The notes under the pieces: generated by a model
What the model saw: only the letters and a program-made list of their open reading frames with translations
Databases searched by the model: none
Told to the model about the DNA's origin: nothing
Origin: Candidatus Omnitrophica bacterium UBA6215
Lineage (GTDB): Bacteria; Omnitrophota; Gorgyraeia; Pluralincolimonadales; Pluralincolimonadaceae
NCBI GenBank assembly: GCA_002421665.1
Contig: DISH01000006.1
Coordinates: 84,879-148,878, forward strand
Length of the DNA: 64,000 bases
Reading direction: 5' to 3'
In this document: piece by piece, positions 37,114 to 53,075 of the stretch
Layout of the letters: every line of letters starts with the position of its first letter
Position numbering within the stretch: position 1 is the stretch's first letter
Made by a program: the position numbers and the translations under genes

Positions 37114-37437
37114 CTATTCTTTGAGCTTTACAGCCGTTCCATAAGCATATACATAACCGCTGTAATTGAAGTAATTGATACCTATTACATAATCGGCTCC
37201 AAGGTCCCTCGCAGTATCCTTTAACTTGTCGTTAAGGCCGTCGAGATTCACCTCTCCTCCGCGAGCCGAGATTATCCCTATTACTTTATATGATTCCTTC
37301 AGGTCCCCAGTGGTAAGGACTATCTCTTTCTGTTTGCCGCTGGAACCCTTATTCTTGGGCATCACCTGGGCATCAATAGTCGAAACCAATACCAGCGCAG
37401 CCAGAACGGTCGCAACTATAAATATATTACGTTTCAT
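37114..37437 (-). CDS. Small secreted YbjQ/DUF74-like protein, last gene of the pilus-like cluster
   Basis: A signal peptide is followed by LGADYVIGINY...YAYGTAVKL, which resembles the YbjQ family core. It overlaps the secretin stop by 4 bp. Confidence 0.4.
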   Translation of the reverse strand: MKRNIFIVATVLAALVLVSTIDAQVMPKNKGSSGKQKEIVLTTGDLKESYKVIGIISARGGEVNLDGLNDKLKDTARDLGADYVIGINYFNYSGYVYAYGTAVKLKE

Positions 37438-38558
37438 AGTACCGGTTCTCCTCTGGAATCAAGTACCGTAGCCGTGAGGAATATCAAAAGGTTCTTCTTC
37501 GCACTGGTACTGTGATGGGTCTTGAAAAGGTCCCCTACCAGCGGGATATCTCCCAGTACGGGCACCTTTCTCTTCGTGACATCCTCAGTCTCCCTGATAA
37601 GGCCGCCGATAACGACGGTCTCTCCGCTCTTAAGTACGACAGATGTCTGTGTGGTCCTGGTATCTATTACTGGATAGCCCAGCCCGTCGGGGAACTCAGC
37701 CGCGGCAGAGATGGGCACCTGGTCGACCAGAACGCTCACTTCCGGATGTATATCCATGGTGATTATCTTGTTGTCGCCTGAAACGGTAGGAGTTACCTCA
37801 AGCATGATCCCTGTAACCTTTTCGGCAACCTTATATACCTCGACCATGATAGGCCTGCCGGTAGTACCAATATTCGTCCTCGTGAAATCGGAAGCATAGG
37901 GTACTATATTGGCAAGCTGTATGTTGGCCATCTGCCCGGAAAGCGTAGTTACCGTAGGCGACGAGAGCAGGTTTAACTTGCCTTGCTCCTCGAGGGCCTT
38001 TATATGCATTCGTATCTGGTTACCTGCGGCCGTGAAAGTACCGAGTTGTAAATCCAAACCGCCAGCTTCGTTCGTAAGCCCAAATACACCTGCGAGGTCG
38101 TTATTGGCATCGCTTCTGTCCAACATTGAATTAGAAAACATACTCACGCCGGTATTGCTAAAACGGTTATTCTTCTCCGCGGAGCGGTTGGGTCTGTACC
38201 ATTCCCATTCCACTCCAAGTTCCTCGATGTCGGTAACATCTATCTCCACGAACCTGGCCTGGATCTTCACCTGGCTGGGGCCGGTGTCCCAAAGCTCAAT
38301 AAGGTCCCTGGCCAATGTCTGGTTGGTCGGGGTATCAGTTATTGTCAAAACACCGGTGATATCATCCATGACTATCTTCCTTTCCGGATTCTCCGGCAGG
38401 GCCTGCTGAAGATAGTCTTGAATATTGTCGGCCTCTCCGCCTGACGAACTTTCTCCTGCCCCCTCGCTTTCCGCCTGGGCAAACACGTTCGATGAAACAA
38501 AGAAGGCGAAGGCTGTTAAAATCGTTGCAAATATCAAAACCCGTCCGGTCATCTTCAT
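37434..38558 (-). CDS. Short secretin (N-domain plus secretin domain), paralog 2
   Basis: It has a signal peptide, an N3-like domain IQARFVEIDV, and the secretin C-domain motif KVPVLGDIPLVGDLFKT...KKNLLIFLTATV. Confidence 0.7.
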   Translation of the reverse strand: MKMTGRVLIFATILTAFAFFVSSNVFAQAESEGAGESSSGGEADNIQDYLQQALPENPERKIVMDDITGVLTITDTPTNQTLARDLIELWDTGPSQVKIQARFVEIDVTDIEELGVEWEWYRPNRSAEKNNRFSNTGVSMFSNSMLDRSDANNDLAGVFGLTNEAGGLDLQLGTFTAAGNQIRMHIKALEEQGKLNLLSSPTVTTLSGQMANIQLANIVPYASDFTRTNIGTTGRPIMVEVYKVAEKVTGIMLEVTPTVSGDNKIITMDIHPEVSVLVDQVPISAAAEFPDGLGYPVIDTRTTQTSVVLKSGETVVIGGLIRETEDVTKRKVPVLGDIPLVGDLFKTHHSTSAKKNLLIFLTATVLDSRGEPVL

Positions 38559-39649
38559 CTTACTGCCTCCCCTCTGGCATTGATGATGCTCGCCGTGATG
38601 AAAATAAGGAGGTTCTTCTTGCGCTGGTTCTTATAATCATATTGGAACGCCTTGCCCAGGACAGGAATATCTCCCAGTACGGGTACCTTCATCTTAGTTA
38701 TAGTCTCTTCGTCCTTTATCATGCCGCCTAACACTATCGTTTGTCCGCTGTCAACAACAACACTCGTCTGGGCGGTCCTTACATCCACAACCGGCCAACC
38801 TAACGAATCAGGGATCAGCGGCACGGCATCTGTCGCGGTGACGTTTCCAAGCTGCCCGGTCTCACCGCTCGTGGTCAACGTGGATATGCTTACCTGGTCC
38901 TTAAGGATACTTACCTCGGGATGCAGGTCTAGGGTTATGGTATTGGAGCCTTCGGTCACATAGGGAGTAGCCTCAAGGAATATCCCTATGGGTTTCTCGG
39001 CCAATGTAAGTTTATAGCTCCATATAGGATCTTCTGCCGTACCTATATTCTCAAGGGTAAAATCCGACACATAGGGCTGTGTCCTTACAACCTGGATATT
39101 GGCCATCTGTCCCGCGATCGTGGTGATCTTGGGTGAAGACAAAAGGTTGGCTTTGCCCTGTTCGGCCAACGCTCTAAGATTGGCAACAAAATAATCGCCG
39201 CCCTCCAGGATCTTAAAGAGCAGCAACTGGCTGGCATAACCACCGGAAAGCGGGAACGTACCTCCCGTAGCGGTATCCCAGACAACCTGTCCCGGTCCTA
39301 CCCTACTACCCCTGAGACCCTTATTGCTGGGGTGGCCTTCGTGCATCTCATAATATTCTACGCCAAGTTCCCAGAGATCGGTGACATCGACTTCGACAAA
39401 CCTTGTCTCTATCATGACCTGTTTAGGCCCGACCTCGTACTGCTTAATAAGGTCCTTTATGAGAGATTGGTTCGTCTTCGTGTCGGTCACTGTAAGGAGC
39501 TTCGTGGCCTGGTTGTATGTTATTTTCCTGCCGTCCTGCGGCGGCAGGCTGTTCTGGAGATACTCAGCAATGGTAAGATCTTCCGAAAACGCGATAAAGG
39601 GAAGCCCCAAGAGGGAAACGACCGCTAGAATAAGGAGATTTTTTCTCAT
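38555..39649 (-). CDS. Short secretin (N-domain plus secretin domain), paralog 1
   Basis: It has a signal peptide, the N-domain LLTVTDTKTNQSLIKDLIKQYEVGPKQVMIETRFVEV, and the secretin motif KVPVLGDIPVLGKAFQY...KKNLLIFITASI. Confidence 0.7.
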   Translation of the reverse strand: MRKNLLILAVVSLLGLPFIAFSEDLTIAEYLQNSLPPQDGRKITYNQATKLLTVTDTKTNQSLIKDLIKQYEVGPKQVMIETRFVEVDVTDLWELGVEYYEMHEGHPSNKGLRGSRVGPGQVVWDTATGGTFPLSGGYASQLLLFKILEGGDYFVANLRALAEQGKANLLSSPKITTIAGQMANIQVVRTQPYVSDFTLENIGTAEDPIWSYKLTLAEKPIGIFLEATPYVTEGSNTITLDLHPEVSILKDQVSISTLTTSGETGQLGNVTATDAVPLIPDSLGWPVVDVRTAQTSVVVDSGQTIVLGGMIKDEETITKMKVPVLGDIPVLGKAFQYDYKNQRKKNLLIFITASIINARGEAVR

Positions 39650-39651
39650 GT

Positions 39652-40767
39652 CTATTCCTGTTTGGTCTCGAATTCCTTCAGTTTAACTTCCCTGGTCTTG
39701 CGTTCCGGATATTTGAGCTTGTAGGTCCTGGTTACCAAGTCTTCTCTCTGTATTACGGATTTGCTTGATACGTAGACATAATTCGGTTCTACTTTATATG
39801 CTAATTGCGTTGTCTTGAAAGCTATGTCCAATACATCAAGAAGGGGCATGGGAGTAGCCGTGCTCAAGGAAATCTTTATGGGGCTGTCTTTCGTAAGGTT
39901 TGCAAGCTCCCTTTCGTCGACAACAATTGTAACGCCCGTCATCTCCATCAACTGTCGGATCAAGTCCTGTATATCCGCATCGGTTACTGAAATCGCCGGA
40001 ACCATTACGCTGCGCATCTTGTCGACCAGGGCCTTTTTCGCTTCCTGTTCAGCTCTTTCGGCCTCAGATATAACTTCTTCTATCTGAACCTCTTCTTTAG
40101 CCGGAGGCGTAGGAGGCAACCAGCTCCTGTCTACGTCCCGCAGCGAAGCCTGTTCCGCGGTTTCCTTTTCCTCGCTTATGACCTGTCTATCTTTTATTAT
40201 ATCCTTGCGCTCCGCAAGCGTAGATTTTTCCCTGAGATAATAGTTTTCGGCTTTCTGGGCCTTCTCAAGCCAAAGGCGGGCTTCCGAATCATTCGGATTT
40301 GCCGCAAGAGCAGTCTCAAAATCGCTTACTGCCGCGGAATACTGTTTATTGACATAATTAGCCTTACCTCTCTTTACCATGGAACCCGTTACCGTTCCAG
40401 GTACGTCCTTAACTATCCCTTCCTTGCATAACTCAACGTAATGGGCCGCAGACTTGTTCCTGGGATCCATCTGTACGATCTTCTCGAACATCTGCTGGGC
40501 AGTCTCGTAATTTTTGGCTTCGTATTCTTTTTTAGCTTGGTTGAAGAGGTCTGAAATAACGGTTTTCCGTTCGCTCTTCTTTTGCTTTGCGAGGTCCTGG
40601 GCTATTATCTTGGCCTCGACGGAATCATCGGAATACGCTGAAGTACTTGCTGCGCGGGCTTCGCTTCCAGAGAAATAAAACAATGAGATAATAAAGAACA
40701 AATTAAAAGTCAGGCAAATACAAAAAAACGGCAGTACCGTTCTTTTAACCCCATTGGTAATATCCAT
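39652..40767 (-). CDS. Membrane-anchored TPR protein with a C-terminal STN / secretin-N0-like domain (pilotin or MshN/PilF-like)
   Basis: It has an N-terminal TM, TPR-like repeats (AKKEYEAKNYETAQQMFEKIVQMDPRN...) and a C-terminus ISLSTATPMPLLDVLDIAFKTTQLAYKVEPNYVYVS resembling STN/N0 domains. Confidence 0.45.
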   Translation of the reverse strand: MDITNGVKRTVLPFFCICLTFNLFFIISLFYFSGSEARAASTSAYSDDSVEAKIIAQDLAKQKKSERKTVISDLFNQAKKEYEAKNYETAQQMFEKIVQMDPRNKSAAHYVELCKEGIVKDVPGTVTGSMVKRGKANYVNKQYSAAVSDFETALAANPNDSEARLWLEKAQKAENYYLREKSTLAERKDIIKDRQVISEEKETAEQASLRDVDRSWLPPTPPAKEEVQIEEVISEAERAEQEAKKALVDKMRSVMVPAISVTDADIQDLIRQLMEMTGVTIVVDERELANLTKDSPIKISLSTATPMPLLDVLDIAFKTTQLAYKVEPNYVYVSSKSVIQREDLVTRTYKLKYPERKTREVKLKEFETKQE

Positions 40768-40772
40768 TTATA

Positions 40773-41450
40773 TCATCTCCCCTTGTTAATAACCCACTCT
40801 TGATTTTGGCCGTATAATACCACACTACCCGGCTTTATGTCAAGAACTTTATAACCGTTGTACTCCTCGCCCTTCTTGACTTCGAATGTCTTGTCGTTCA
40901 TTGAGTCATATAATTTAGCTATAAGCTCTTTACTTTTAACGGGTTTCTTGTACTCAAGGATGAGCTGGCCGTCTCTGTTTTCTGCCTTGATCAGTTTGGA
41001 GTTTATTTCCAAAATTTTGTAATCCTTAAACTTTTCCCCCTTCTTAGCAAAATATGTCTTACCCGACCAGTTGATCTGCCCTATCATGGTCCCATCCTGC
41101 TTCTGGATGAAGCCGTTATACATAAAAGGCAGATTGTTCGCTCCTATGGAAACGACCTTAAGCTTTTCCGGGCTGAACTGCTCGGGGGGCGCTTCCGGTT
41201 TGATAAAAATATTCCTGTCGAACAAAGGCTTATATCTCGATATCGCGAACGGTGAATTAATACCGTCGATAAGCGCGGCATATTTGTCGGTTGTATCCGC
41301 GACTTCACTGTCCTGGGCTTTCTGCGTTCCGGCCTTCTCCTCTATTAAAACATCTGATCCTTCAGGCGCAAAGAGGGATGATCCCCTCCAAAGAAAGACG
41401 AGCCATATCGCAAACAGGATCATAGTTGCTATTTTATAAACGTCCTTCAT
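40773..41450 (-). CDS. Bitopic membrane protein, putative PilP/GspC-like assembly component
   Basis: It has an N-terminal TM and a beta-rich periplasmic region. The call is based on its position between the PilO-like gene and the secretins, with no strong motif. Confidence 0.3.
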   Translation of the reverse strand: MKDVYKIATMILFAIWLVFLWRGSSLFAPEGSDVLIEEKAGTQKAQDSEVADTTDKYAALIDGINSPFAISRYKPLFDRNIFIKPEAPPEQFSPEKLKVVSIGANNLPFMYNGFIQKQDGTMIGQINWSGKTYFAKKGEKFKDYKILEINSKLIKAENRDGQLILEYKKPVKSKELIAKLYDSMNDKTFEVKKGEEYNGYKVLDIKPGSVVLYGQNQEWVINKGR

Positions 41451-42211
41451 TTCTTCTCCTGTTGCTGTACGGCAGCCACTATTATCATTTCAACCTTAAG
41501 CGCGCCCTTTTCGCCCATATCTTCATTTACTGTCTTTGCTTTTATCATCTCTATTCTGAACGGTATCCCCGCAGAATACAATTTATACATAAAATTCACG
41601 AGGTTATCGCTCTTGCATTCGAATGAAATCCTGACCGGGAAATTCCTGAACAGAGGGTCTTTCTCGCCTTCAAGAACGACCACTTTGGATTCCAGGAACT
41701 CTACGGATGAGACTTCGGGTATCTTGGACTGCAGCATAAGGTCGATGATCTCGGCGATTATATCCAGCTGCTTGACCCTTACCGGAAGGTCCGCCGGTGC
41801 GGGGATATCATGCTCATACCGCTCAAACCCCAGCCAGAACGGGAATTGGAAATCAATAGGAGCGCCTTTATCCTTTATATTCTTTTGGACCCTGTAAAGC
41901 TCTTCCTTGAATTTCAAGGCATCGCCGACATCCTTTGGCATCTGCGCAACAGGTTTGGAGAAGAGCCCCTTGCTCATGCGCTCGTTCACGCTGTTAAGGG
42001 AACCCATCTGCCTTTCCAGTCTAAGCCTTTCCCTGTTGAGGTTGCCGAGCCCTTCGCTCCTGAAGTTATCCAGTTCTCCGGTCTTGCCTTCTATGGACCT
42101 CTTCAAGGAAATCCTGTCCAGCCCAACTAAAACGGCTATGCCTAGGGAAATCAAGAAAAGCACTCCCAGTGCAATTTTTGTCATTATATGGGACTTTATC
42201 CCGTTAGCCAT
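41447..42211 (-). CDS. PilO/GspM-like bitopic membrane protein
   Basis: It has an N-terminal TM, then a coiled coil, then an alpha/beta domain. It sits immediately downstream of the PilM-PilN fusion. Confidence 0.4.
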   Translation of the reverse strand: MANGIKSHIMTKIALGVLFLISLGIAVLVGLDRISLKRSIEGKTGELDNFRSEGLGNLNRERLRLERQMGSLNSVNERMSKGLFSKPVAQMPKDVGDALKFKEELYRVQKNIKDKGAPIDFQFPFWLGFERYEHDIPAPADLPVRVKQLDIIAEIIDLMLQSKIPEVSSVEFLESKVVVLEGEKDPLFRNFPVRISFECKSDNLVNFMYKLYSAGIPFRIEMIKAKTVNEDMGEKGALKVEMIIVAAVQQQEKK

Positions 42212-42213
42212 TC

Positions 42214-43851
42214 TTATTTTTTGTCCTTATCAGAATCCAGCGGTTCCGATAGCATCCCGCGCGCTTTAAGCTTGAACTTTATGGAAAAATCCCTTATCTG
42301 CCCCATGCCCTCTTCGTCGTCTTTCGGGAGACTCGCGTAAATTATATCTACACTTTCAAAGAAAGGGGATTCCGCCAGTTTGTTCTTGAAATCCGTGATA
42401 GCGGTCAGGTTCTCGGAGGTCCTGCCTTCTATAGTTACCCAATCTTTCTCCATACCAAACGAAGTAAGCCATGTCTCTTTCGGAAGGAGTTTTTCGACCT
42501 CAAGGAAAGACTCCAGCAAAAGCGATCTTCTGGCTGCTATATTCTCAAGCGGTTTTATGCTTAACTCGCCTTTCTTTATGCTATCCTTAAGGGATGCGAT
42601 CTTGGTCTTGACTCCCTCATACTGAGATAACATTTCATCCAGGAAGGATATCTGTTTTCTTAAGGCTCCCGACTGGAACCATATGTTCATTGCTATGGTG
42701 AAGGGAATGAGGGCGAGCATGATCCCAGCCGATATTATCCATATTCTCTCTTTCTTGAAGTCCCTCTCCTCTTTCCTCTCTATCGGCAGCAGGTCTATAT
42801 TTGTCGGGCATCTCTGAAGCACCCGCAGACCAAGGCCGATAGCCGCTCCGAACCTTGACTGGAAATCTATATCCACCCTGAGGTTGGAAGGACACTTTAT
42901 CTTCTGGCCGAGGTTAGCGCGCCTGATCTGCATGCCCAGGCTCTTCGACAGGAAATCCTCAATACCTTTTAGCTTAGAACCGCCTCCGGATAGTATCACT
43001 TCGCCGAAAACCGTATTCTTACCGTGTTTCGTTTTGTAAAATTCAAGCGACTGTACTATAGAGGAGACCATATCGGAAACGACGGAGTTGAGGATACCGG
43101 AGAGATCTTTTCCGGTTGAACTTACATTGGAGGGCATCAGACCGTCCGATGGGACAACCATGCCTTCTTTCCTTTTAAGTTCCTCCGCCTTGTCAAAAGG
43201 CATGTTAAGTTTGGTGGCGATAGCATGTGTCATCTCGTCACCGGCTATAAGCACGGAACGAACCCAAAACCCTTTGTCCTCAACGACTATAAGGTTTGTG
43301 GCCTTAGCGCCGATATCTATTATTATACCCTTGGATATGGGTTCATTGAACGTTATCGCGTTAAGCAGGGAGAGCGGGCTTACATCAACGGAATCTATAG
43401 CAAGGCCTGTCCTGGAAAAATTCGCGAGGGTAGATTCAACCAGTTCTTTTTTTGCGGCAACGAACAGGACATCCTCTTCCGGCCCTGAACTGCTGCGGAA
43501 TATCTGGTGGTCCCAGGTGATCTTATCGAGAGGGAACGGGACCTGTTGCTGGGCCTCGTATTTTATTATTTTGCCTATTTTGCCTTTTTGTATTTTGGGG
43601 AGCTTCAGGAACCTTATGAAGACGGACTGCCCGGAGAGGGATATGGCGGTATTCCCGCCGCGTATCTTTTCTGTTTTCAGGAGACCTTCCAGACCTTCCC
43701 TTATAAGGGCTTCCCTTTTGTCCTGGTCGGAATGCTGGGTAAGGTCAAAAAACTTCGCCCGAAGGAGTTGAAAACCTTCAGCTGTCTTTTCAAGCTCTAT
43801 AAGCTTGACTGAGCCTGCGCCTATATCGATACCGAGAGCACGTTTTCCCAT
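42214..43851 (-). CDS. PilM-PilN fusion protein (actin-like ATPase domain fused to a PilN/GspL-like TM segment)
   Basis: It has the N-terminal PilM-like motif LGIDIGAGSVKLIEL. The central region has the PilN/GspL hallmark NIDLLP followed by a TM helix and a coiled coil. Confidence 0.7.
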   Translation of the reverse strand: MGKRALGIDIGAGSVKLIELEKTAEGFQLLRAKFFDLTQHSDQDKREALIREGLEGLLKTEKIRGGNTAISLSGQSVFIRFLKLPKIQKGKIGKIIKYEAQQQVPFPLDKITWDHQIFRSSSGPEEDVLFVAAKKELVESTLANFSRTGLAIDSVDVSPLSLLNAITFNEPISKGIIIDIGAKATNLIVVEDKGFWVRSVLIAGDEMTHAIATKLNMPFDKAEELKRKEGMVVPSDGLMPSNVSSTGKDLSGILNSVVSDMVSSIVQSLEFYKTKHGKNTVFGEVILSGGGSKLKGIEDFLSKSLGMQIRRANLGQKIKCPSNLRVDIDFQSRFGAAIGLGLRVLQRCPTNIDLLPIERKEERDFKKERIWIISAGIMLALIPFTIAMNIWFQSGALRKQISFLDEMLSQYEGVKTKIASLKDSIKKGELSIKPLENIAARRSLLLESFLEVEKLLPKETWLTSFGMEKDWVTIEGRTSENLTAITDFKNKLAESPFFESVDIIYASLPKDDEEGMGQIRDFSIKFKLKARGMLSEPLDSDKDKK

Positions 43852-43894: not shown

Positions 43895-45088
43895 TTATTT
43901 TCGCGCGCGCTCTAATCTTTGGCACTCTACCATATTTTCGAAGGAATCTTGTTTGATCTGCCCGTCCTTTGAAAAATCATTGGCGATCGAAAAACAAAAA
44001 TAGGCCGTCTTTGCCTTTTCGCCTTTCTCCGGCTGTTTAAGCCTCCCTGCCTTCTTCAGGAGGTCTTCTCCCTGTTTGAAGTACCGGCCGCTCAAGTCGC
44101 TTATATATGACTGGTCCTGCATCCTTAACATATAACCTGTTATGAGAGCATGGCGGGCATCGCTGGAAGGTTCGGGTCTTGTATCAAAAAACCTCTTAAT
44201 GGCGTCCCGGGCTTTCGAATCCGCCATCTTCCTGACCTGCCCTCCGGATGAAGCAGCAACAATATCGTAACATGCGACCGCAGCGATGTAATAGCCGCTC
44301 TTCCTGTCCTTGTCAACTTCTTCGGCGCGCTCTTCGTAATCTATCCCCCTGTTGATGCACTTAATAAAATATGCCTGCTTGCATTCATCCGTATCCATGT
44401 GGGAAAGGACCGATTGCATCTCCTCGGCGGCAAAAACTATTTCAGGCGGCTCCTGTAAATTGTCAAGGATCTTCGATGCCCTGAAATTCCCCCAGATCTT
44501 AGTTATCAGGCCCCTGGACCTTCCCGCATAAGATGAATCCGGGTAAAGGGAGATCACCGACTTCGCCAACTGTTCGGCCTTATAATATTCGCCCCATTTA
44601 TATTCTGTCTCCGCTACGGCAAATAGTTTTTCGGCCTCTTTTTCCTGCACAACCGCGAGGTCCTTACCCGCTTTCTCTGCAAGTTTGGGATCCAATTCCT
44701 TCGCTATCCTGTAATGCCTGTCTGCCATTTCGAAGAGACCGTTCTCCGGGGTCGCATTGTCATAACACCATTTTGCAAGCTGGAGTTGCGCGGACGCGTC
44801 ATCCGGTTTTATACCATTGACCTTCAAAAAATATATATCCTGTTTTGTATAAAGGTCTTCTTCCCGTATGTCCGATCTTACGACGTTCTTTATCCACGCT
44901 TTCGGGAAAGTGCTTGTCCCCCCGGCCTTGAGCTTTACGGTAACATGGGTATCGCTCTCGTTCACTATCTTGCCGTCCATCTTCCCTCCTCCATCCTTCA
45001 GTTCGATAACATCGGCGGACCCGGCAGGACAAGACAATACCAGGGAAGCTGCCAGCAGGACAAGAACCGGAAAACCGCGACTCGACAT
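43895..45088 (-). CDS. Secreted hypothetical protein with TPR-like helical repeats
   Basis: It has the signal peptide MSSRGFPVLVLLAASLVLSCPAGSA. I recognised no family. Confidence 0.4.
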   Translation of the reverse strand: MSSRGFPVLVLLAASLVLSCPAGSADVIELKDGGGKMDGKIVNESDTHVTVKLKAGGTSTFPKAWIKNVVRSDIREEDLYTKQDIYFLKVNGIKPDDASAQLQLAKWCYDNATPENGLFEMADRHYRIAKELDPKLAEKAGKDLAVVQEKEAEKLFAVAETEYKWGEYYKAEQLAKSVISLYPDSSYAGRSRGLITKIWGNFRASKILDNLQEPPEIVFAAEEMQSVLSHMDTDECKQAYFIKCINRGIDYEERAEEVDKDRKSGYYIAAVACYDIVAASSGGQVRKMADSKARDAIKRFFDTRPEPSSDARHALITGYMLRMQDQSYISDLSGRYFKQGEDLLKKAGRLKQPEKGEKAKTAYFCFSIANDFSKDGQIKQDSFENMVECQRLERARK

Positions 45089-45096
45089 CTCTCCTC

Positions 45097-47610
45097 CTAT
45101 TTACAATATACCACCTTAGCGGGCGGTAAATAAGTCATCGTAACATCTTCCAGGACGGGGGTCTCCGCGTAGCCGGCATCGGAACTTGATAACGTCGCTA
45201 TAAAAGCTGCGCCGGAAGACACGCCTCCTATCGGACCATCCTTTGAAACGCCGATGGTGCCTATACCCCTGTCAACCTGCATCGACACCCGTTCTGAAAC
45301 TTCGCTGGCCGTAGAGGGCAGAGTCAGTGTCCATGAGATAGTGCCCCACCTGACATTTTCGGAGGTTATCATGTTCGGACAGCGATAAGAACCCGAGGAC
45401 GGTATTATCCTTAGTTCATCCCATTTAGGCGAAGCATTGTTGCCATAAAGCGCAGGATACCATTGCGTAAGCTGCCAGTTGTTCAAGTCATTGTTGTTGA
45501 TCGTCCAAAAACCGTAACGGTCGCGCTTGAGCTCGTTAGAGGCGTCATTATGGAACGGGATCATTACATAGTTCGTTGTCGCCGGGCTGAAACCGACGCT
45601 TCCGAGAAACCATCCGTTGTTGAAATTATAATACCTGTGCCAACCCTGGCCTACGGCAAGGTAGACGCGGTAATTCGGGCTCTGGGTTGCGCTTACCACC
45701 AGTTTAAGCGTCTCCTTCACGGGGCAGACACCGTGGAATTGTTCGAATCCCTGGTCCCCGGATGAGACGGTATAGTCGAAATAGTGGTTGACCTGCGGAT
45801 CGGACAGGCCGTAAAGGTAACCTATATTATATGTGCGTTCGTTCCTAAGCGACGGGGAGTTATTCCACATATGAAGCAATATCTTGCTGTCCGCAAAATC
45901 CTTTCCTTCGCGGGAAGACGCCGGTTCGTTCGTCGCAGAGTCACGCTCGACCGTCCAGCCGGGCCGGGTTATATCCCTTCTCGGGGAATATTCAAAACCC
46001 CAGTTCTGTGTCCAGAGTTTTCCCTTGACCTGGTTCGCCCATGTAAAATCAACATGTCCGGTATCTTCCCAGCCGTCGCCGCCCGGGGAAGGCCTCAGCG
46101 ACACCCTGAAAGAAAAAGCATTGCCGAATGTCCATCTGCTGTTATCCGACAATGCAAACTTAGGCCATCCTTCCCCCCACATCTCACAGTCCCCGTCGGA
46201 ATCGCTGTCAGATATATAAAGCGTGGCGTTCTGTTGCTGCCAATTCGACCAGCTGTACCCGGTCTTGTTCGTATTATCGTTGTCCTCGTCAAAGTTGTCC
46301 CAGAACCCAAGCTTGAGCGAATTGGGAACGGTTGTGTAATCAGAAGCGTAGATAAGGCCCTGGTCATCCGTAGATACCACCGGACAGGAATTCAGCCAGG
46401 TTACCCTTGAAAAAACCGGCTGGTCCAGGACGCCGTTGCCGTTCTTGTCCTCGCCCGGATCCAGCAGGCCGTTATAGTTCGCGTCCTCTCCGCGGAACTG
46501 TTCCTTCGTCGTGTAACTGACCACTTCAAATATCTTTACGACCGCCAGGGTCTCTTGCGCTGAACCAGTCCTGTCAACAGGGTCTGAAAGATCGCCGTCA
46601 GAATTCGTATCTATACCGACAGTCCCGGTAGAACATATTTCAAAGTAGCCCCCGGGATTGAAACAGAAATCCGTGGTATACAAAGAAGGCTTCACCCTGT
46701 TGGGATTGGCATTGGCTTTTATATTTATCCTGTCGATGGAACTAAGGGACGGGGTTATGGAAACATTATCTATAAAATCGTCGAATCCCCCTGATGCAGC
46801 CGTCCCGTTCCAGCTCCTGAAAGGCACAGAGGAACGTTGTGTCACGATCGCAGCGGCAAGAGCCGATGCCTGCGCATCCGTTACTATTCCCATCAGGACT
46901 GCCCGGAGAACCTCCTGGCCGGCGGTATTAATATTGACGGGGGCTTTCCTCTGGTAACTTCCGGGGCCTGTCATCCCCGGAGAAGTGCTGTCCTCGCTGT
47001 TCTCATCTATGTACCCGTAGACACAGATATAATCCCTGACCACGGCATACTTTGAGGCATCCCATCCGGAAGATGTCATTACCTCTTCCTTGGTAGCGAA
47101 CGGCCTGTTGGTATTATCGGCTATGGCCTCTCCATCTGCCCGGGCCAGGCCCAGTACGACCGCAAGATTGCCAAGAATGGTCCTTAAATTTGGGTTCGTA
47201 TCGTTTACATTGACCTGCGAAGCAGTATCCGTCACCTTCAATGAATATACGGCTATGCTGTTCCTCCCGATATCACCTAAAGAACCGCTGGTACCGTTGC
47301 CCGCTATCCCGTCACGAAGGTCGAACGACGGGTTGGAAGCGCTTGTGTAATTCCAGTCGCAGGAAGCCGACGGAAGCCCGATAAAATCGCTCGCGGAGAG
47401 TTCCCTTAAATACACCACTGCCAGGCTGATCCCGGCGTCCGAGGCCTGTTTGGCTTTCATATTCTCTATGTGGTTGGACGATGCTTTGAGATCAAAAGTC
47501 ATATTAAAAGCAAAAGAGGTGGCTATCAGCGCGACGAGAGCAAGCACTCCCACCGTCACGATAAGAGCTACGCCTTTATTGTCTCTTCTTCTGATAAGGT
47601 CTTTGGTCAT
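45097..47610 (-). CDS. Giant GspK-like minor pseudopilin (837 aa), paralog 2
   Basis: It has a prepilin-like N-terminus RRRDNKG|VALIVTVGVLALVALIATSF without Glu+5, which is GspK-like. It also has the helix-hairpin-helix motif PVNINTAGQEVLRAVL and a C-terminal motif TPVLEDVTMTY shared with the 951-aa paralog. Confidence 0.6.
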   Translation of the reverse strand: MTKDLIRRRDNKGVALIVTVGVLALVALIATSFAFNMTFDLKASSNHIENMKAKQASDAGISLAVVYLRELSASDFIGLPSASCDWNYTSASNPSFDLRDGIAGNGTSGSLGDIGRNSIAVYSLKVTDTASQVNVNDTNPNLRTILGNLAVVLGLARADGEAIADNTNRPFATKEEVMTSSGWDASKYAVVRDYICVYGYIDENSEDSTSPGMTGPGSYQRKAPVNINTAGQEVLRAVLMGIVTDAQASALAAAIVTQRSSVPFRSWNGTAASGGFDDFIDNVSITPSLSSIDRINIKANANPNRVKPSLYTTDFCFNPGGYFEICSTGTVGIDTNSDGDLSDPVDRTGSAQETLAVVKIFEVVSYTTKEQFRGEDANYNGLLDPGEDKNGNGVLDQPVFSRVTWLNSCPVVSTDDQGLIYASDYTTVPNSLKLGFWDNFDEDNDNTNKTGYSWSNWQQQNATLYISDSDSDGDCEMWGEGWPKFALSDNSRWTFGNAFSFRVSLRPSPGGDGWEDTGHVDFTWANQVKGKLWTQNWGFEYSPRRDITRPGWTVERDSATNEPASSREGKDFADSKILLHMWNNSPSLRNERTYNIGYLYGLSDPQVNHYFDYTVSSGDQGFEQFHGVCPVKETLKLVVSATQSPNYRVYLAVGQGWHRYYNFNNGWFLGSVGFSPATTNYVMIPFHNDASNELKRDRYGFWTINNNDLNNWQLTQWYPALYGNNASPKWDELRIIPSSGSYRCPNMITSENVRWGTISWTLTLPSTASEVSERVSMQVDRGIGTIGVSKDGPIGGVSSGAAFIATLSSSDAGYAETPVLEDVTMTYLPPAKVVYCK

Positions 47611-47701: not shown

Positions 47702-48601
47702 TTATTTCCTTCTGCCCGCCGCAAAGGCACCGATATCGCCGCGGGAACCGTCGGGGTCGTTATATTGCTTGTCCGGGTCCCCTGAATCTATACATGGAGA
47801 GCCTGCTTTAAGGCTATAATCATCCTTGGACGGGTTCATGAATTTTGGATCCGAAATCAGGTCATGCTCTCCCTTTTTGCAATCGATAAAATCCTTAACA
47901 TCCCAAAATATGTTATACTCCAGCTTAAGATAGACATCTTCACGGGGTTTCTGCCAGTATTTAGCCGCGTCTTTCTCGGATACGTCATTTGGGTTCGCCA
48001 TAATGGGGGGTTTTGTCACGAATATACCTACCCTGTTATTATAGAAGATACTATTCCTTATAGTAAGGTCTATGGGACCCTGCCAAAGCTGCAGCCCGTA
48101 TCCGCCGTTGATGATATCGCAGTTCGAGATGACCGCATTCTCCACCGAGCTTATTTTCAGGCACGTGGATAGGTTCTTCCCCCTCAATATGCAGTTCTTC
48201 ATCTTCAGGCCGTTCATGCCATTGACGGACAGCGGAAATCCGTCAACTTCTATCGTCAGGGCCTCCAGAGTAAGGTTGTTTATACTGCCGTTAACGGAAA
48301 CTATTGACAGGCCTTCCCGGCCCAATTTAATTGTCGTCCTGTCGGCTCCGTGTCCAGCCAAACGGGTATTACCCTTGAAGATCGTGGAGCCGTCCGCAGA
48401 GAAATCCCCCTCGCCCAGAAATATCGTATCGCCCGGCAGCGACTTTTCGCAGGCTTCTTTTATCGTCTTGCAGTCACCCGGAACGCGTATTGTATATTTA
48501 TCTGCGATCGCCGCAATAGAAACCGCATTGACCGCTAAAAAACCCGTCAGGACAGCGGACAACAAACGCATTTTACCCATATCGATAATCTTCCGGTTCA
48601 T
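47702..48601 (-). CDS. Secreted right-handed beta-helix repeat protein (pectin-lyase fold-like)
   Basis: It has a signal peptide, and repeated motifs NCILRGKN...ISNCDIINGGYGLQL...IRNSIFYNNRVGIFV typical of parallel beta-helix repeats. The start may be an internal Met. Confidence 0.5.
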   Translation of the reverse strand: MNRKIIDMGKMRLLSAVLTGFLAVNAVSIAAIADKYTIRVPGDCKTIKEACEKSLPGDTIFLGEGDFSADGSTIFKGNTRLAGHGADRTTIKLGREGLSIVSVNGSINNLTLEALTIEVDGFPLSVNGMNGLKMKNCILRGKNLSTCLKISSVENAVISNCDIINGGYGLQLWQGPIDLTIRNSIFYNNRVGIFVTKPPIMANPNDVSEKDAAKYWQKPREDVYLKLEYNIFWDVKDFIDCKKGEHDLISDPKFMNPSKDDYSLKAGSPCIDSGDPDKQYNDPDGSRGDIGAFAAGRRK

Positions 48602-51453
48602 CGTTGATAGAATACCGTTGTAAAAGGTTTATGGTAGATAACCGTGACATCCGTAAGTACCGGGGTCACGCTGCTCGCCGAATAATCATTTGGATCAAGC
48701 GCGCTCGTTGCCAACAGGGCCTTATACTGGAACTTCCTCCCGGAGATAGCCGAGACCGAGTCTCCGCTTGCATAAGTGGAGACGAAGCTGTCCGAGGACG
48801 ATGCCCTCGCATACATGGTTATCGATGTGCTGGTCGGTATTATAGCATTCCATGTTATGGTATCCCATGATATCCCTGTGTTATCTGTCGGTAATTTCGT
48901 GATCAAAGGAGCCGATACGATATACCCCTTCGGGTATATGATCCTGACGTCATCGAACTGGTTGACGCATTCTGAGTCGGAACCCCACCAATCGGCATTC
49001 CTCTCTGCCAACTCTTCTATGAAAGCATTATTCGCGTGAGTGCTCCAGAACTGGGTAAAATCGGCATAATAAAGGTTATTGCCCCTTAATTTTACCACTC
49101 CTTCTTTTGAAGCACTGCCGGCTACGCGCAGAGCACCCTGCACGAAACCGGAGCCCGCCGAAGTGGTATAAGTATAATAGGGCCTGTAAGACGTCCCTAC
49201 CCCCACGGCTGCCAATATATAATACCGGGAATCATCCGGCCATATCGCATATGTCGCATTCCCTACGATTTTACCGGGCAAATTAGTCTCGTTCATATCC
49301 ACCGAATAAAGATCGTTATCGCCATCCTTCACAAGGGTATAATAGCCCCCGGTGGCTTTGGTCCCCTCGTAAGGCTCCTCCTTAAGAAAGAGATAGCCTG
49401 TTAACCATGAAGGACTGTAAGCGGGGGTGGGCTGTCCCGGGTTCGTCAGGCGCTTGCTCGGGGGTTTATGCCATACCCAGCTACCGGTCTGCTGCTGGCC
49501 GTCATCATAGACATAACATCTGGCAAATATATCATATCCCAACTCGGCGCTTGGGGCGTAATAATTGCCGTTGACTTCTGCGCTCCTCTCTTCGGGATAA
49601 CGCTGGACTGTGGTTCCTTCCACGATATCGGTATAATAACCTTTCATATCAAGCCTCAAGCTGTACGTTCCGTCAAAACCCTGCCTTAGGGAGGTATCGC
49701 CGAAACTCAGGTCCCATCTCGAATCAGTTCCCCAGATCACATCGGTAGGGATGTCGAAAGTCTTGCCATCCGGAAAAGTATAACTTACGGCAGGCGTGAC
49801 TCCCGTGATCTTGGCCAGATATCCGCCTCTCCATGTTACGACACTGTAGGCTACATCGTCATCAAAATCATCCCAATAACCGAGTTTGACAGAATCATAA
49901 CATTTCGTATAACCGGAGGTCTCCCATGCCATGCAGGAACCGTTCCACGAGTCGGCGCTTATAGGGCAGGAGTCCAGCCAGGTTACGTTCCTGACCTCGC
50001 CATCGCTCAGATCTCCGTAATCCGAGAACCAAGCTGCATAAAACTCGGCCCTGGTAGTCTGCGTCATGGTATTAAAAACTTCCACGACGGATACCATCTG
50101 CCTCTCGGCAAGCGTGGAGCCATCCGCCCTCTTCGCTTTACCCGTAGCCACTATTTTGATTATCCCCCCGGAATTGTAATCCGCGCCAAGGGTCGATGCG
50201 GGAACGCGGTCTGATGTGGTCCATTTATCAAGTATCCTGCCGTAATACGAAGTAGGCAGGTAAGCAAAATAATCGGCTGGGACATAATCTTCCGCGCCAA
50301 GGGCATTCCATTTCAGTTCCAAGGTATTCTGGTTCTCATAATTGTAGAAATCGAACCTTATCGGATGCCACCCTCCGCGGGTAAACTTCACGGAACCGCT
50401 GGTAAGCGCTCCGGAACTCCAGGTGCCCATAGACCTCTCCGTCCAATCCGCTATAAGCTGCCTCCCGTCTATAAAAAGCCTGCATCCCTGTTCGCTGCGC
50501 ATCCTGAACGTTATGTCCTGGTTTATCTTGTTATCGGGGATATAGATGAAACCCGTAAATACCATGCCATAGCGTTCCATCCCGTATTTATTTTGCCAGT
50601 CGGTTATGACATATCCCCCGGAAAATTCCGCGTCATGCGCTTCTGCCCACCCCGAATTATCTCCGTCTGTCCCCGGGAAAGTCCCTGAAGGCGGGTATGG
50701 GCTCGAAGCAGCAGCCTTCGCCTCTTTCATAGCACCCAGATCTATGACCTTTCCTGAATAATAATCGAGGGAAAGTATGGTGTCCCTGCTCCAGGTCTCC
50801 CTGCTGTTAGTATAACCTTTGCATATCAGGCCGCCTTGTATTAACGGCGCATATATCGTAATGAGGCCTTTTATGCTATTGTATTTCCCGTCATCCTTGA
50901 GGACCAGACGAACCTCTTCTATAGTGGCAAAGGGCGCATTCTTGGCGTTTGTCTCGTCGCCGGCTGCCGAGACACGACCCGTAGAGGTCAGCAGCTGCGT
51001 CGTTGCGCTGGAGTCCTGGTCGACATAATCGATTATCTTCGCAATATCGTCATAGCTCAGGCCTGCGGCAGCAAGCGTTTCGATCCACGGGTAATCGGTC
51101 TCGTCGATATTGTTGATATTGATCACTTGGTCCTGTCTTTCGACATAAACCTGGCAGCTCCCTCCCGGAAGGTCTACCTCGGTACCGGGAGAAGAATAAT
51201 TTGCCGCTATATCAGCCATTAGCGCGCTGTAACCGTTACTTGCCGCCCAGCTGCGTATTTCCGCAACAGCGCGGTCGATGCCTGCCCGAGCCATCTCCTC
51301 AGCCTGGGTCTGGTTGACGAAATTCTGGACTGCCTTATACTCCATCTGCATGTTTATGGCGAAACTCGTGGCTATCATAGCCACGAGCGCAAGTATGCCT
51401 ACGGCTATTATAAGGGCAACGCCTTTCTTTTGTTTTAAGACCGCCTTATCCAC
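48598..51453 (-). CDS. Giant GspK-like minor pseudopilin (951 aa) carrying a PA14 domain, paralog 1
   Basis: It has the N-terminus KQKKG|VALIIAVGILALVAMIATSF without Glu+5, a GspK-like motif VININNIDETD...NAPFATIEEV, and a PA14-like segment GFIYIPDNKINQDITFRMRSEQGCRLFIDGRQLIADW...WHPIRFDFYNYENQNTLELKW. Confidence 0.6.
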   Translation of the reverse strand: MDKAVLKQKKGVALIIAVGILALVAMIATSFAINMQMEYKAVQNFVNQTQAEEMARAGIDRAVAEIRSWAASNGYSALMADIAANYSSPGTEVDLPGGSCQVYVERQDQVININNIDETDYPWIETLAAAGLSYDDIAKIIDYVDQDSSATTQLLTSTGRVSAAGDETNAKNAPFATIEEVRLVLKDDGKYNSIKGLITIYAPLIQGGLICKGYTNSRETWSRDTILSLDYYSGKVIDLGAMKEAKAAASSPYPPSGTFPGTDGDNSGWAEAHDAEFSGGYVITDWQNKYGMERYGMVFTGFIYIPDNKINQDITFRMRSEQGCRLFIDGRQLIADWTERSMGTWSSGALTSGSVKFTRGGWHPIRFDFYNYENQNTLELKWNALGAEDYVPADYFAYLPTSYYGRILDKWTTSDRVPASTLGADYNSGGIIKIVATGKAKRADGSTLAERQMVSVVEVFNTMTQTTRAEFYAAWFSDYGDLSDGEVRNVTWLDSCPISADSWNGSCMAWETSGYTKCYDSVKLGYWDDFDDDVAYSVVTWRGGYLAKITGVTPAVSYTFPDGKTFDIPTDVIWGTDSRWDLSFGDTSLRQGFDGTYSLRLDMKGYYTDIVEGTTVQRYPEERSAEVNGNYYAPSAELGYDIFARCYVYDDGQQQTGSWVWHKPPSKRLTNPGQPTPAYSPSWLTGYLFLKEEPYEGTKATGGYYTLVKDGDNDLYSVDMNETNLPGKIVGNATYAIWPDDSRYYILAAVGVGTSYRPYYTYTTSAGSGFVQGALRVAGSASKEGVVKLRGNNLYYADFTQFWSTHANNAFIEELAERNADWWGSDSECVNQFDDVRIIYPKGYIVSAPLITKLPTDNTGISWDTITWNAIIPTSTSITMYARASSSDSFVSTYASGDSVSAISGRKFQYKALLATSALDPNDYSASSVTPVLTDVTVIYHKPFTTVFYQR

Positions 51454-51462
51454 TCTATACCT

Positions 51463-52212
51463 CTACTGTACGCGTATGAAATCCGTAAAAGTCCTCTTCT
51501 GGCTCCCGTCGCGGCTTTGTATCGTTATTGAAACCGCTACCGCGTTGGGCAAACCATCCGGGACCTTCGCGTTGTTCCCGTCGTCATAATTCTGGCTGGG
51601 GCTTCCATCAAGGAGGTCCAGTCCGGAATTCCACTCGCTCGCCGTCGTTGCCGGAAGCCCCCCGACGGCGGACTTATAATAATATGTGAACTGCAAGTCC
51701 GTAACATTGCGCGCTATGATATCATCGGAAAAAGTCCCTGAACTGTTGTTTGAAAAATCGTATACCACCGGGACCGTGCTGCCATTAAAATATTCGAAAT
51801 GCCTCATTAGGCAGTTATCGTCACGAAGCCAGTAACCTATTTCGCACAGGTCCTGCATACCGGGGTTATCTTCAACCGGCGCCACAAGGAACAACTCATC
51901 GGCGACAGAACCGGATTTAATTATATAGGTGCCGCCCTTGTCGTTGCCCTGGAACTTTGTCCAATAGCCGGTATTATCCGATTTCTGGTAGAGTACGGCA
52001 GAGGGTATCTCCTTGCGCATAAGTTCCAGCGCGAACCTGGCATTCTGGTATATATCCAGCAATGTCTCGGATTTACGCCATGAATCGAGGGCCCCCCTGA
52101 AGACCGTGAACAGCGATAGAACAACTATAGAGAAGATAACAGAAACTACCAGTATCTCCACAAGGGTGAGTCCTGCCCTGCAGGCCTTTAAATTCTTACC
52201 TGTCCGCGACAT
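51463..52212 (-). CDS. Type IV prepilin-like minor pseudopilin (GspJ/PilW-like)
   Basis: It has a class III signal MSRTGKNLKACRAG|LTLVEILVVSVIF with Glu+5. Confidence 0.6.
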   Translation of the reverse strand: MSRTGKNLKACRAGLTLVEILVVSVIFSIVVLSLFTVFRGALDSWRKSETLLDIYQNARFALELMRKEIPSAVLYQKSDNTGYWTKFQGNDKGGTYIIKSGSVADELFLVAPVEDNPGMQDLCEIGYWLRDDNCLMRHFEYFNGSTVPVVYDFSNNSSGTFSDDIIARNVTDLQFTYYYKSAVGGLPATTASEWNSGLDLLDGSPSQNYDDGNNAKVPDGLPNAVAVSITIQSRDGSQKRTFTDFIRVQ

Positions 52213-52549
52213 TTATGGTAAAACCTCTCTGAAAACTCTTATTGCCCTGCCCCCAGCCGACAGTGCAGATCACCTGCCTTAAATTATCCACGGAGGTAGT
52301 CGAGACCGTCTGGGTCCAGGTATATGCGGGATCTGTGAACGTGCCTGAGGTAGTGCCGAGACTGGGAAAACCGTTGTTCCTTATCCGTTCAAAATGCTCG
52401 TGGGCGAATATCGTGGCCTGGGTGGCGCTTACCGACCTTCGGGCGGAATCGAAACCTATCGGGAAAAGGGACAGTATCCCCACCAGCCCTATCGCGAGGA
52501 TAGAAAGAGAGATGATTATTTCGATGAGGGTAAATCCGCTCCTCTTCAC
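52196..52549 (-). CDS. Type IV prepilin-like minor pseudopilin (GspI-like)
   Basis: It has MKRSG|FTLIEIIISLSILAIGL with Glu+5, and at 117 aa has a GspI-like size. Confidence 0.65.
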   Translation of the reverse strand: MKRSGFTLIEIIISLSILAIGLVGILSLFPIGFDSARRSVSATQATIFAHEHFERIRNNGFPSLGTTSGTFTDPAYTWTQTVSTTSVDNLRQVICTVGWGQGNKSFQRGFTINVADR

Positions 52550-52577: not shown

Positions 52578-53075
52578 TTATCTGGTCCAGTTCGTTACGT
52601 TGTCCGTGCCTCCGACCACCCTGTCCGGACCATACGAAATAATATCGACGTAATAACCGCCGTGCCCTGAAGTATCGGGATTAGTATAAGTCAATGCCGT
52701 GCCCCAGGCATCGATTATCGTGCTGCCTCCGGTAAGGTCATTGTCCTTGAATGTCATATAAGGTCCCGACCAGTTGGTAGTAGGAAGCGTGTAAGTACCG
52801 GTACCTATAACATAGTTACCGGTATTGTTCACAAGGCAGTTATACAAGTTAGTATTGCCGCTTCGCGGATAACCGCCAAGATCAGCCTGGAACATCCCAA
52901 TACCGGTCTCTATCGCGGCTATCATCGCCTTTGTGCGGGCTATCATCGCCTTCTGCCTTGCGGTCTGGGCGGCCGCCGCCACCAATCCCGCCAACAGCAA
53001 TATTATAGTCATGACGACCACAAGTTCTATTATGGTGAAACCTTTCTTCCTGTTCGTCCTAACCATATTAACCAC
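52578..53075 (-). CDS. Major pseudopilin / type IV pilin (GspG-like)
   Basis: It has MVNMVRTNRKKG|FTIIELVVVMTIILLLAGLVAAAA with Glu+5, and a GspG-like length and periplasmic domain. Confidence 0.75.
   Translation of the reverse strand: MVNMVRTNRKKGFTIIELVVVMTIILLLAGLVAAAAQTARQKAMIARTKAMIAAIETGIGMFQADLGGYPRSGNTNLYNCLVNNTGNYVIGTGTYTLPTTNWSGPYMTFKDNDLTGGSTIIDAWGTALTYTNPDTSGHGGYYVDIISYGPDRVVGGTDNVTNWTR

Follow-up and report, generated by a model that had tools for sequence, protein, structure and literature searches.

The window, i.e., the whole stretch of 64,000 nucleotides analyzed here, carries the type IVa-like pilus operon that is conserved in Candidatus Omnitrophota, and a giant protein encoded in this operon, denoted K2 below, is a GspK-class modular tip pilin that recurs in this phylum along with a dedicated secreted partner (Table 1). 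The family assignment is sound. From sequence comparison, structural modeling and genomic context combined, we propose that K2 is probably a modular tip adhesin, one of several interchangeable heads of the pilus, rather than half of an obligate heterodimer with K1, the second giant protein of the same operon.

Table 1. Features of K2, K1 and the surrounding pilus operon, in coordinates of the window.
Feature	Position	Strand	Evidence
K2, 837-aa giant GspK/PilX-class minor pilin	45097..47610	-	ORF, ATG start
K2 residues 1-372: class III signal peptide (G13/V14, Val at +5), alpha1 helix, GspK-fold pilin domain with inserted alpha-domain	46495..47610	-	
K2 residues 131-190: first HhH of the alpha-domain	47041..47220	-	family profile vs ComEA 8dfk_A, E 8.9e-7
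K2 residues 223-267: second HhH (PVNINTAGQEVLRAVL...), Pfam T2SSK signature	46810..46944	-	Pfam T2SSK E 9.8e-5
K2 residues 373-397: two DxNxNGxxD loops (DANYNGLLD, DKNGNGVLD), putative Ca2+ sites	46420..46494	-	sequence reading
K2 part between the DxNxNGxxD loops and the C-terminal module	45403..46323	-	
K2 residues 737-837: C-terminal beta-sandwich module (WGTISWT...TPVLEDVTMTY) and K-family-specific tail LPPAKVVYCK	45100..45402	-	
K1, 951-aa paralog with the same head and C-terminal module, PA14 instead of the second HhH	48598..51453	-	BLASTP, hhalign, NCBIfam T2SS_GspK E 2.3e-13
K1 residues 315-389: PA14 domain	50287..50511	-	Pfam PA14 E 1.4e-6, 28.6 bits (cutoff 24)
299-aa Sec-exported right-handed beta-helix protein, K1 partner gene, 4-bp overlap with the K1 stop	47702..48601	-	Pfam Beta_helix E 1.4e-7; signal peptide read from sequence
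397-aa Sec-exported K2 partner: small N-terminal beta domain (DVIELKDG...) and helical/TPR-like region; start 8 bp past the K2 stop	43895..45088	-	
GspJ/PilW-like minor pilin, 249 aa, Glu5	51463..52212	-	N_methyl E 1.9e-5; weak GspJ / Verru_Chthon C matches; conserved position
GspI/PilV-like minor pilin, 117 aa, Glu5	52196..52549	-	N_methyl E 2.5e-7; PilV/XpsI/GspI matches
GspG-type major pilin, 165 aa	52578..53075	-	Pfam T2SSG E 3.3e-10, N_methyl
Platform protein GspF/PilC	53068-54333	-	Pfam T2SSF E 1.5e-59
Two MshEN-domain GspE/PilB-type assembly ATPases	54403-56154, 56144-57856	-	T2SSE E ~1e-142 each, MshEN
PilM-PilN fusion	42214-43851	-	Pfam PilM_2, PilN
Amuc_1100-like PilO	41447-42211	-	NCBIfam Amuc_1100, weak
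225-aa protein and TPR/Amuc_1098-like 371-aa protein	within 37434..43851	-	NCBIfam Amuc_1098, weak (371-aa)
Two short secretin-domain proteins	38555-39649, 37434-38558	-	Pfam Secretin

The reading frame of K2 and the nature of its head were correctly recognized in the preliminary description, which had reported an 837-aa ORF with a prepilin-type N-terminus lacking Glu at +5; a protein identical to K2 (P0001) is already present in public collections. The N-terminus, RRRDNKG/VALIVTVGVLALVALIATSFAF (the slash marks the predicted cleavage site), has Gly at -1 and Val at +5 and, with the hydrophobic alpha1N segment that follows the site (NKG/VALIVTVGVLALVALIATSF), conforms to a class III signal peptide. 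The predicted mature protein starts with VALIVTVG, and K1, after KKG, with VALIIAVG, the residue at +5 being Val in K2 and Ile in K1. Gly occupies -1 in 131 of the 136 ungapped members of the K superfamily, and position +5 is I, L, M, V or F, but never Glu, among the 151 aligned members; the GspG-, GspI- and GspJ-like pilins of the locus all have Glu5 (G/FTIIE, G/FTLIE and G/LTLVE, respectively). The lack of Glu5 is typical of the GspK/PilX class, with which K2 also shares the pilin fold with an inserted HhH-containing alpha-domain and the location of the gene downstream of I- and J-type minor pilins (in the order G, I, J, K1, beta-helix, K2). In addition, K2 has the architecture of a modular pilin, i.e., a non-pilin domain is fused to the C-terminus of the pilin module.

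The HhH motif (PVNINTAGQEVLRAVL, residues 223-238), which had been listed as an additional feature of the protein, is indeed present, but it lies inside the Pfam T2SSK match (residues 225-267) and thus is an ordinary signature of the GspK alpha-domain: T2SSK is matched by 25 of the 30 members of the K2 family, and HHH_3 by 13. The T2SSK score of K2 itself (E 9.8e-5, 23.1 bits) is slightly below the 24.2-bit cutoff, and the score against the NCBIfam equivalog model for T2SS GspK (NF037980) is 51.1 bits, below the 130-bit cutoff; K2 is therefore a homolog of GspK but not an equivalog. Homologs of K2 are named GspK by NCBI, and one source labels one of them “DNA uptake protein ComE-like”.

It appears highly improbable that K2 serves as a tip-located DNA receptor of a competence-type pilus, binding DNA via ComEA-like HhH motifs. 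Although the profile of the K2 family matches the ComEA HhH (E 8.9e-7), the HHH_3 matches extend to almost half of the family, and a ComE-like name has been given to a homolog, the tandem HhH arrangement is normal for the GspK alpha-domain as defined by Pfam T2SSK and, to our knowledge, has no known DNA-related role. Moreover, the Gly-hydrophobic-Gly hairpins of the K2 motifs are degenerate (LGLA and MGIV), PA14 takes the place of the second HhH in K1, and DNA binding would leave the large, conserved, C-terminal lectin-like part of the protein unexplained.

Sequence comparison indicates that K1 and K2 are paralogs over their whole length. Similarity between the two proteins had been anticipated for the head and the C-terminus; pairwise alignment reveals it at both ends but extends it further, with three colinear BLASTP HSPs that cover the head (K2 1-199 and K1 1-202, E 9e-18), the junction (K2 304-443 and K1 415-533, E 2e-12) and the C-terminus (K2 647-837 and K1 744-950, E 8e-6). 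The profiles of the two families, based on 30 K2-type and 25 K1-type sequences, align along the full length (hhalign E 3.9e-69, 713 columns). The K1-family profile also matches a PA14 structure (6qdi_A, E 1.6e-21).

The C-terminal ~460 residues of K2 appear to comprise a Ca-loop-like junction, a variable concanavalin A-like lectin domain and a conserved terminal beta-sandwich. In the AlphaFold2 model, which was built with 30 homologs, the mean pLDDT is 82.9 and the pTM is 0.80; none of the Pfam and NCBIfam models matches residues 370-836. The canonical last strands of GspK apparently are present in cis, at residues ~318-362. The two DxNxNGxxD loops, which might bind Ca2+ judging by their sequence, are retained in the K2-family consensus and missing from K1. 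The resemblance of K2 to GH16 enzymes is limited to the fold of the ConA-like superfamily: GH16-type activity is ruled out by the lack of an ExDxxE or ExDxE catalytic motif anywhere in K2, and the region is accordingly taken to resemble a lectin rather than an enzyme. Glycan binding does not necessarily follow from such a fold, so that K2 is best viewed as a candidate glycan binder by virtue of its predicted fold.

A common C-terminal module of K1 and K2 had also been proposed. The module is real but not specific to these two proteins, being a widespread beta-sandwich of ~95 aa that forms tandem repeats in Planctomycetota/PVC proteins. A search of 1.84 billion representative proteins with the module profile yielded 1,653 matches at E<=1e-3, many of these in proteins of 1,200-6,000 aa with 2-10 tandem copies (of those checked, two are named as proteins of Pirellulales and Gemmataceae), and there is no Pfam model for the module in these repeat proteins either. 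We therefore regard it as a domain that is widespread among PVC surface proteins, not as a device specific to pilins. The elements specific to the K family are the WDxxRII strand that comes before the module and closes the lectin-like domain, and a tail of ~10 residues, LPxxx(I/V)LYxR, with an invariant Tyr (Y834 in K2). The module profile is matched at positions 2-113 by K-type proteins but only at 12-104 by the repeat proteins, and the ending ...QYKaxLxT...ETPVLEDvTiTYLPxxxiLYxR is near-universal in the superfamily, including distant relatives from Planctomycetota.

In the full-length model of K2, residues 831-835 adopt a strand conformation that is not seen when the module is modeled on its own, which suggests that the tail probably pairs outside the module; mean-field DCA for tail contacts (151 superfamily sequences, Neff ~120) produced only gap artefacts and no usable signal. 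We also considered the possibility that the C-terminal ~22 residues constitute an element of their own, separate from the beta-sandwich, as suggested by divergent K-like proteins of one locus (L006) that in BLAST share only the head and the tail with the rest of the family. This idea was ruled out given that the module of the L006 proteins is split by an inserted domain of ~175 aa (HMM profile positions 12-89 and 89-113), which implies that the last strand is part of the module.

All genes of the operon are on the minus strand, in the order: two ATPases, GspF/PilC, GspG, GspI, GspJ, K1, beta-helix protein, K2, 397-aa protein, PilM-PilN fusion, PilO, two additional proteins and two secretins; the genes that flank the operon are housekeeping genes. 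Of the type IVa pilus components, the PilB-type ATPase, PilC platform, PilMNO and secretin are present, and PilT is absent within the operon, although a PilT-like ATPase is encoded inside the orthologous operon of L003, L019, L023 and L030. The combination of GspC, GspL and GspM with GspD that defines a T2SS was not found: the platform consists of a PilM-PilN fusion and a PilO-like protein, with two short secretins, and the sole GspC match, that of the 225-aa protein to NF041515 (E 0.057, 13 bits vs. 150), is far below the threshold. Type-4a pili reportedly are common across the classes of Omnitrophota and have been proposed to mediate host attachment, and clusters of this type are classed as T4aP (PMC10066038).

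Because the major pilin scores as T2SSG and the operon lacks a PilT-like ATPase, a secretion-type pseudopilus retains a small probability. Under this scenario, K2 would cap a periplasmic pseudopilus, and its lectin-like domains, instead of functioning in adhesion, would recognize the secretin or a cargo, such as the neighboring beta-helix protein. The best family matches of the pilins to T2SS GspK, GspG and GspI, the naming of the homologs by NCBI and the juxtaposition of the K genes with genes for secreted proteins, namely the beta-helix and 397-aa proteins, are all compatible with such a function. Nevertheless, we consider it improbable, given the PilM-PilN/PilO platform in place of GspL/M/C, the PilT-like ATPases in the operons of other lineages, the sub-threshold score of the only GspC candidate and the published T4aP classification of these clusters. 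Furthermore, variable, duplicated lectin and PA14 heads fit adhesin diversification better than they fit the tip of a piston.

Within the operon, a 9-bp spacer lies between the J and K1 genes, the end of K1 shares 4 bp with the beta-helix gene, the gap between the beta-helix gene and K2 is 91 bp, and that between K2 and the gene of the 397-aa protein is 8 bp. This spacing fits two sub-modules, one with K1 and the other with K2; a promoter and terminator scan of the 91-bp gap detected weak terminator-like and promoter-like sites, not above chance. The association with the respective partners extends beyond the window. The beta-helix gene is conserved behind PA14-type K genes, and the family of the 397-aa protein is characterized by a Sec signal, a beta domain of ~55 aa (DIIxLKxG...) and a helical/TPR-like body.

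We retrieved 38 related loci, which were annotated using HMMs and jackhmmer seeded with the window proteins, and counted the K genes in the 12 loci, window included, in which the region between I-J and PilMN is present in full. Almost all K2 homologs and related loci come from Candidatus Omnitrophota MAGs, and the operon is conserved across K2 identity levels from 92% to about 30%. A single K gene is present in L010, L016, L023, L025 and L030, two are found in the window, L002, L003, L009 and L013, and three (K1, K2 and a third K) in L001 and L007, whereas the I-J pair is single in every complete locus, whatever the number of K genes. Thus, the presence of two giants in one locus, which the preliminary description had deemed unusual, is not so within this phylum. 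Both K1 and K2 are present in 7 of the 12 complete loci. A K2-type gene directly follows J in L003, L010, L016 and L023. Where a locus has just one K, this K is of the K2 type, so that K2 seems to be the core cap and K1, with its PA14 domain, an addition.

A partner gene, for a 397-aa family protein in some cases and a beta-helix protein in others, is located within 250 bp downstream of 36 of the 43 K genes for which enough downstream sequence is available; in L033, the partner is a fusion of both types. Pairs consisting of a K gene and a partner gene also occur alone, far from the pilus machinery (L004, L017, L024, L026 and L029). The 351,934-bp contig that encodes P0001, presumably the one from which the window derives, contains, in addition, a second cassette, H-I-J-K(PA14), and two more K-like genes with their partners (L006).

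These observations bear on the weakest part of the first reading, namely, that K1 and K2 reside in the same tip complex on GspI-GspJ as a heterodimer, with two large surface domains side by side. Both giants indeed are GspK-class, tip-type pilins with a shared head. Their genes belong to one operon, and all two-K loci listed above retain the pair, with a third K added in L001 and L007; such co-occurrence could equally reflect cooperation in one tip. Two bulky modular pilins, PilB and PilC of Streptococcus sanguinis, have been modeled in one tip (PMC9934059), and the conserved junction and C-terminal elements common to K1 and K2 could interact. An obligate K1-K2 cap is nevertheless unlikely. 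A single I-J pair is accompanied by 1 to 3 K genes, some loci make do with only one, K genes and their partners also form orphan pairs, and in the window, the two sub-modules are set apart by the 91-bp gap with its weak signals (not above chance). Moreover, the absence of Glu5, seen in K1 and K2 alike, is the classical mark of a single top subunit (PMC13533445). We therefore favor interchangeable heads, given that the I-J pair is constant but the units of K and partner vary in number (1-3 in a pilus locus, with others located elsewhere in the genome), and that orphan cassettes exist.

The Glu5-less K subunit is known to cap the I-J(-H) initiation complex at the tip of type IV filaments (PMC13533445). 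By analogy, we hypothesize that residues 1-~370 of K2, with the leader cleaved after Gly13, are a complete cap subunit of the GspK/PilX type that, in accord with the fold and the I-J-K gene order, would be placed on top of the GspI-GspJ pair and initiate the filament. The ~460 C-terminal residues, fused in cis, would then be displayed at the pilus apex as an adhesin, the lectin-like predicted fold suggesting that they most likely bind glycans. No PilY1/PilC-like gene was detected among the operon ORFs that were scanned, and we therefore propose that K2 carries the adhesin itself, so that it would do in cis what PilY1/PilC does in trans in classical T4aP. K1 would be a paralogous head with a PA14 domain, and each K gene would travel with a Sec-exported partner (the 397-aa family for K2 and the beta-helix protein for K1) that might act as a chaperone or as a co-adhesin. 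If one K caps each pilus, the cell would possess a repertoire of binding specificities.

An even broader scenario, which we put forward tentatively as it is rather doubtful in its entirety, is that, in the giant K proteins, a PilK/GspK cap and a PilY1-like adhesin are naturally fused in cis, and the tail zips back. The tail, with its invariant Tyr834, would zip onto the cap or the junction once the whole head is exported and folded, in a licensing step resembling that of CpaL. The swappable cassettes of K and partner on one I-J adaptor would decide which hosts or prey are grasped by the ultra-small and probably host-dependent Omnitrophota.

Omnitrophota, a group of abundant and uncultured bacteria with ultra-small cells, are believed to live on other cells, with type IVa-like pili as the proposed organelle of attachment. 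In the literature searched, we found no description of the tip determinants of these pili, and no paper on giant GspK-like pilins in Omnitrophota/PVC or on the Verru_Chthon cassette (see below). The K family provides concrete candidates: GspK-class caps with built-in lectin or PA14 heads, in 1-3 cassettes per pilus locus and in orphan copies. If borne out, they would exemplify, in a diderm, an I-J-K initiation complex with the adhesin carried in cis by K, and the licensing of a large head for assembly and the swapping of tips as a basis of host range would become testable questions. The significance would be greater still should the ideas on cis-licensing and host range prove correct.

Compared to GspK/XcpX of T2SS and PilX/PilK of T4aP, the K proteins are 2.5-3 times larger, K2 having ~460 extra C-terminal residues in lectin-like beta-sandwich domains. 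They also differ from GspK/XcpX in that K2 is far under the NCBIfam equivalog cutoff and in belonging to a PilMNO-type rather than a GspCLM machine, with 1-3 paralogous copies. In classical T4aP, the separate adhesin PilY1/PilC is mounted on the K cap via a C-terminal beta-strand, whereas in T2SS, GspK supplies the strand itself (PMC13533445). PilY1/PilC, MshQ and CpaL/TadG resemble the K proteins as large adhesins displayed on the I-J-K initiation complex (PMC13533445). CpaL, in particular, has a similar layout: it starts with a pilin-like domain, continues with a large central region and ends in a conserved stretch at the extreme C-terminus (PMC13533445). PilY1 and MshQ, in contrast to K2, are separate non-pilin proteins that donate the C-terminal strand to PilK in trans, and K2 does not have the PilY1/PilC organization, i.e., that of a non-pilin protein with a strand-donating, C-terminal beta-propeller.

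A precedent for this domain architecture comes from S. sanguinis, in which PilC (ConA-like lectin) and PilB (vWA) likewise combine a pilin module and an adhesive module in cis (PMC9934059, PMC8179133), with a predicted location at the tip and two modular pilins in one locus. However, the pilin moieties of these proteins are short and not of the GspK type, the organism is a monoderm, and there is no terminal beta-sandwich, tail or dedicated partner gene. Within the PVC superphylum, the Verru_Chthon cassette protein A (TIGR02600), encoded with B and C, also is a giant with a similar N-terminal head that adjoins small prepilin-type proteins. There are weak matches of K1 and K2 to A, of I to B and of J to C, but K2 is not a member of TIGR02600, scoring 26.1 bits against a 332-bit cutoff over the N-terminal 61 residues only. 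Finally, the “Tips” of the Kil (Tad) pilus of Myxococcus xanthus, like the proposed K heads, are several alternative tip modules with variable domains, in an organism that shares a predatory or host-dependent lifestyle of the kind predicted here (PMC12075869). The Kil pilus, however, is a Tad (T4c) system in which whole sets of minor pilins are duplicated, whereas in the T4a-like system of Omnitrophota, only K and its partner are multiplied on a shared I-J pair.

Pfam has no model for the ~95-aa C-terminal beta-sandwich shared by both giant GspK-class minor pilins, K2 (837 aa) and its PA14-containing paralogue K1. This module is found in 1,653 representative proteins. Frequently, it occurs in 2–10 tandem copies, in host proteins that reach ~6,000 aa, and its neighbors in the matching proteins include Big_5, cadherin-like and ConA/GH16-like segments (e.g., P0100 from Pirellulales, 2645 aa, and P0101 from Gemmataceae, 2708 aa, both of the set P0100–P0227).

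Two distant K-like giants from Planctomycetota (1135 and 1175 aa) combine a PilX_N head with the same C-terminal motif as K1 and K2; genes for an ECF sigma factor and a HEAT-repeat protein precede each of them, and neither lies near pilus machinery. In a MAG titled Actinomycetota, two K-like genes are apparently broken in two, with separate ORFs for head and tail (496+497 aa in one gene, 243+595 aa in the other), which may reflect frameshifts, pseudogenes or assembly errors. A giant GspK built in another way is represented by P0065 and P0066 from Omnitrophica (1042–1052 aa), where the head is similar, the HhH domain is preceded by an insertion that comprises a lamin-tail (LTD) domain and further sequence, and the C-terminal end is of the canonical GspK type, without the beta-sandwich module.

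A second minor-pilin cassette (L006) resides on the 351,934-bp contig that also encodes P0001, a protein identical to K2. This cassette, which contains no machinery genes, encodes GspH-like, I-like and J-like minor pilins, a 949-aa PA14-type K, proteins of 338 and 403 aa, a K of 1041 aa, a protein of 355 aa and a K of 1027 aa; in the latter two Ks, the C-terminal module is split by an inserted domain of ~175 aa.

Features of the window and of the related loci
Feature	Locus	Position	Strand
739-aa ORF	window	20340-22559	-
GH2-like gene	window	23433-24773	
Small stand-alone GGDEF protein	window	31854-32372	-
Outer-membrane component	window	37434-40767	-
K2 residues 373-397, DxNxNGxxD loops	window	46420-46494	-
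Two pilus ATPases	window	54403-57856	-
Bactofilin-HTH_17 fusion (179 aa) and 131-aa protein	window	57996-58899	-
Two K-like giants	L005, JBHPJM010000007.1	8312-13408; 18069-23286	
Second minor-pilin cassette	L006, ena:ERZ27315056 k141_1183271	139667-162516	
Divided K-like genes	L021	3515-9088	
PilT-sized ATPase	L003	2129-3196	
PilT-sized ATPase	L019	2152-3303	
PilT-sized ATPase	L023	3516-4595	
PilT-sized ATPase	L030	2827-3996	
Single ~706-711-aa protein	L016	8493-10613	
Single ~706-711-aa protein	L018	6410-8545	
Single ~706-711-aa protein	L023	15948-18071	

The outer-membrane component in the window is divided among three proteins, one of them TPR/Amuc_1098-like (371 aa) and the other two short, with secretin domains (364 and 374 aa). 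One protein of ~706–711 aa matches the 371-aa protein and the secretins alike in three other lineages (L016, L018 and L023).

Both pilus ATPases contain the MshEN domain, which in MshE binds c-di-GMP. Together with the GGDEF gene located ~5 kb downstream of the pilus operon, this domain content hints that c-di-GMP might govern pilus assembly. In four of the related loci, a PilT-sized T2SSE-family ATPase (355–389 aa) is encoded between two long ATPase genes; this gene is missing in the window's operon and its closest relatives. Directly upstream of the window's ATPase genes are those for the bactofilin fusion and the 131-aa protein; the latter contains a region resembling HTH and, at its C-terminus, a transmembrane helix. 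Elsewhere in the window, the 739-aa ORF, adjoined by the GH2-like gene, has no match in Pfam; its probable start is an internal Met, with the signal peptide MLKRTAALFIFCSILLRPWWASA.

K2 itself contains two consecutive loops, DANYNGLLD and DKNGNGVLD, that are conserved among K2-family proteins; K1 has neither. These putative Ca2+ loops resemble EF-hand or thrombospondin-type Ca2+ sites.
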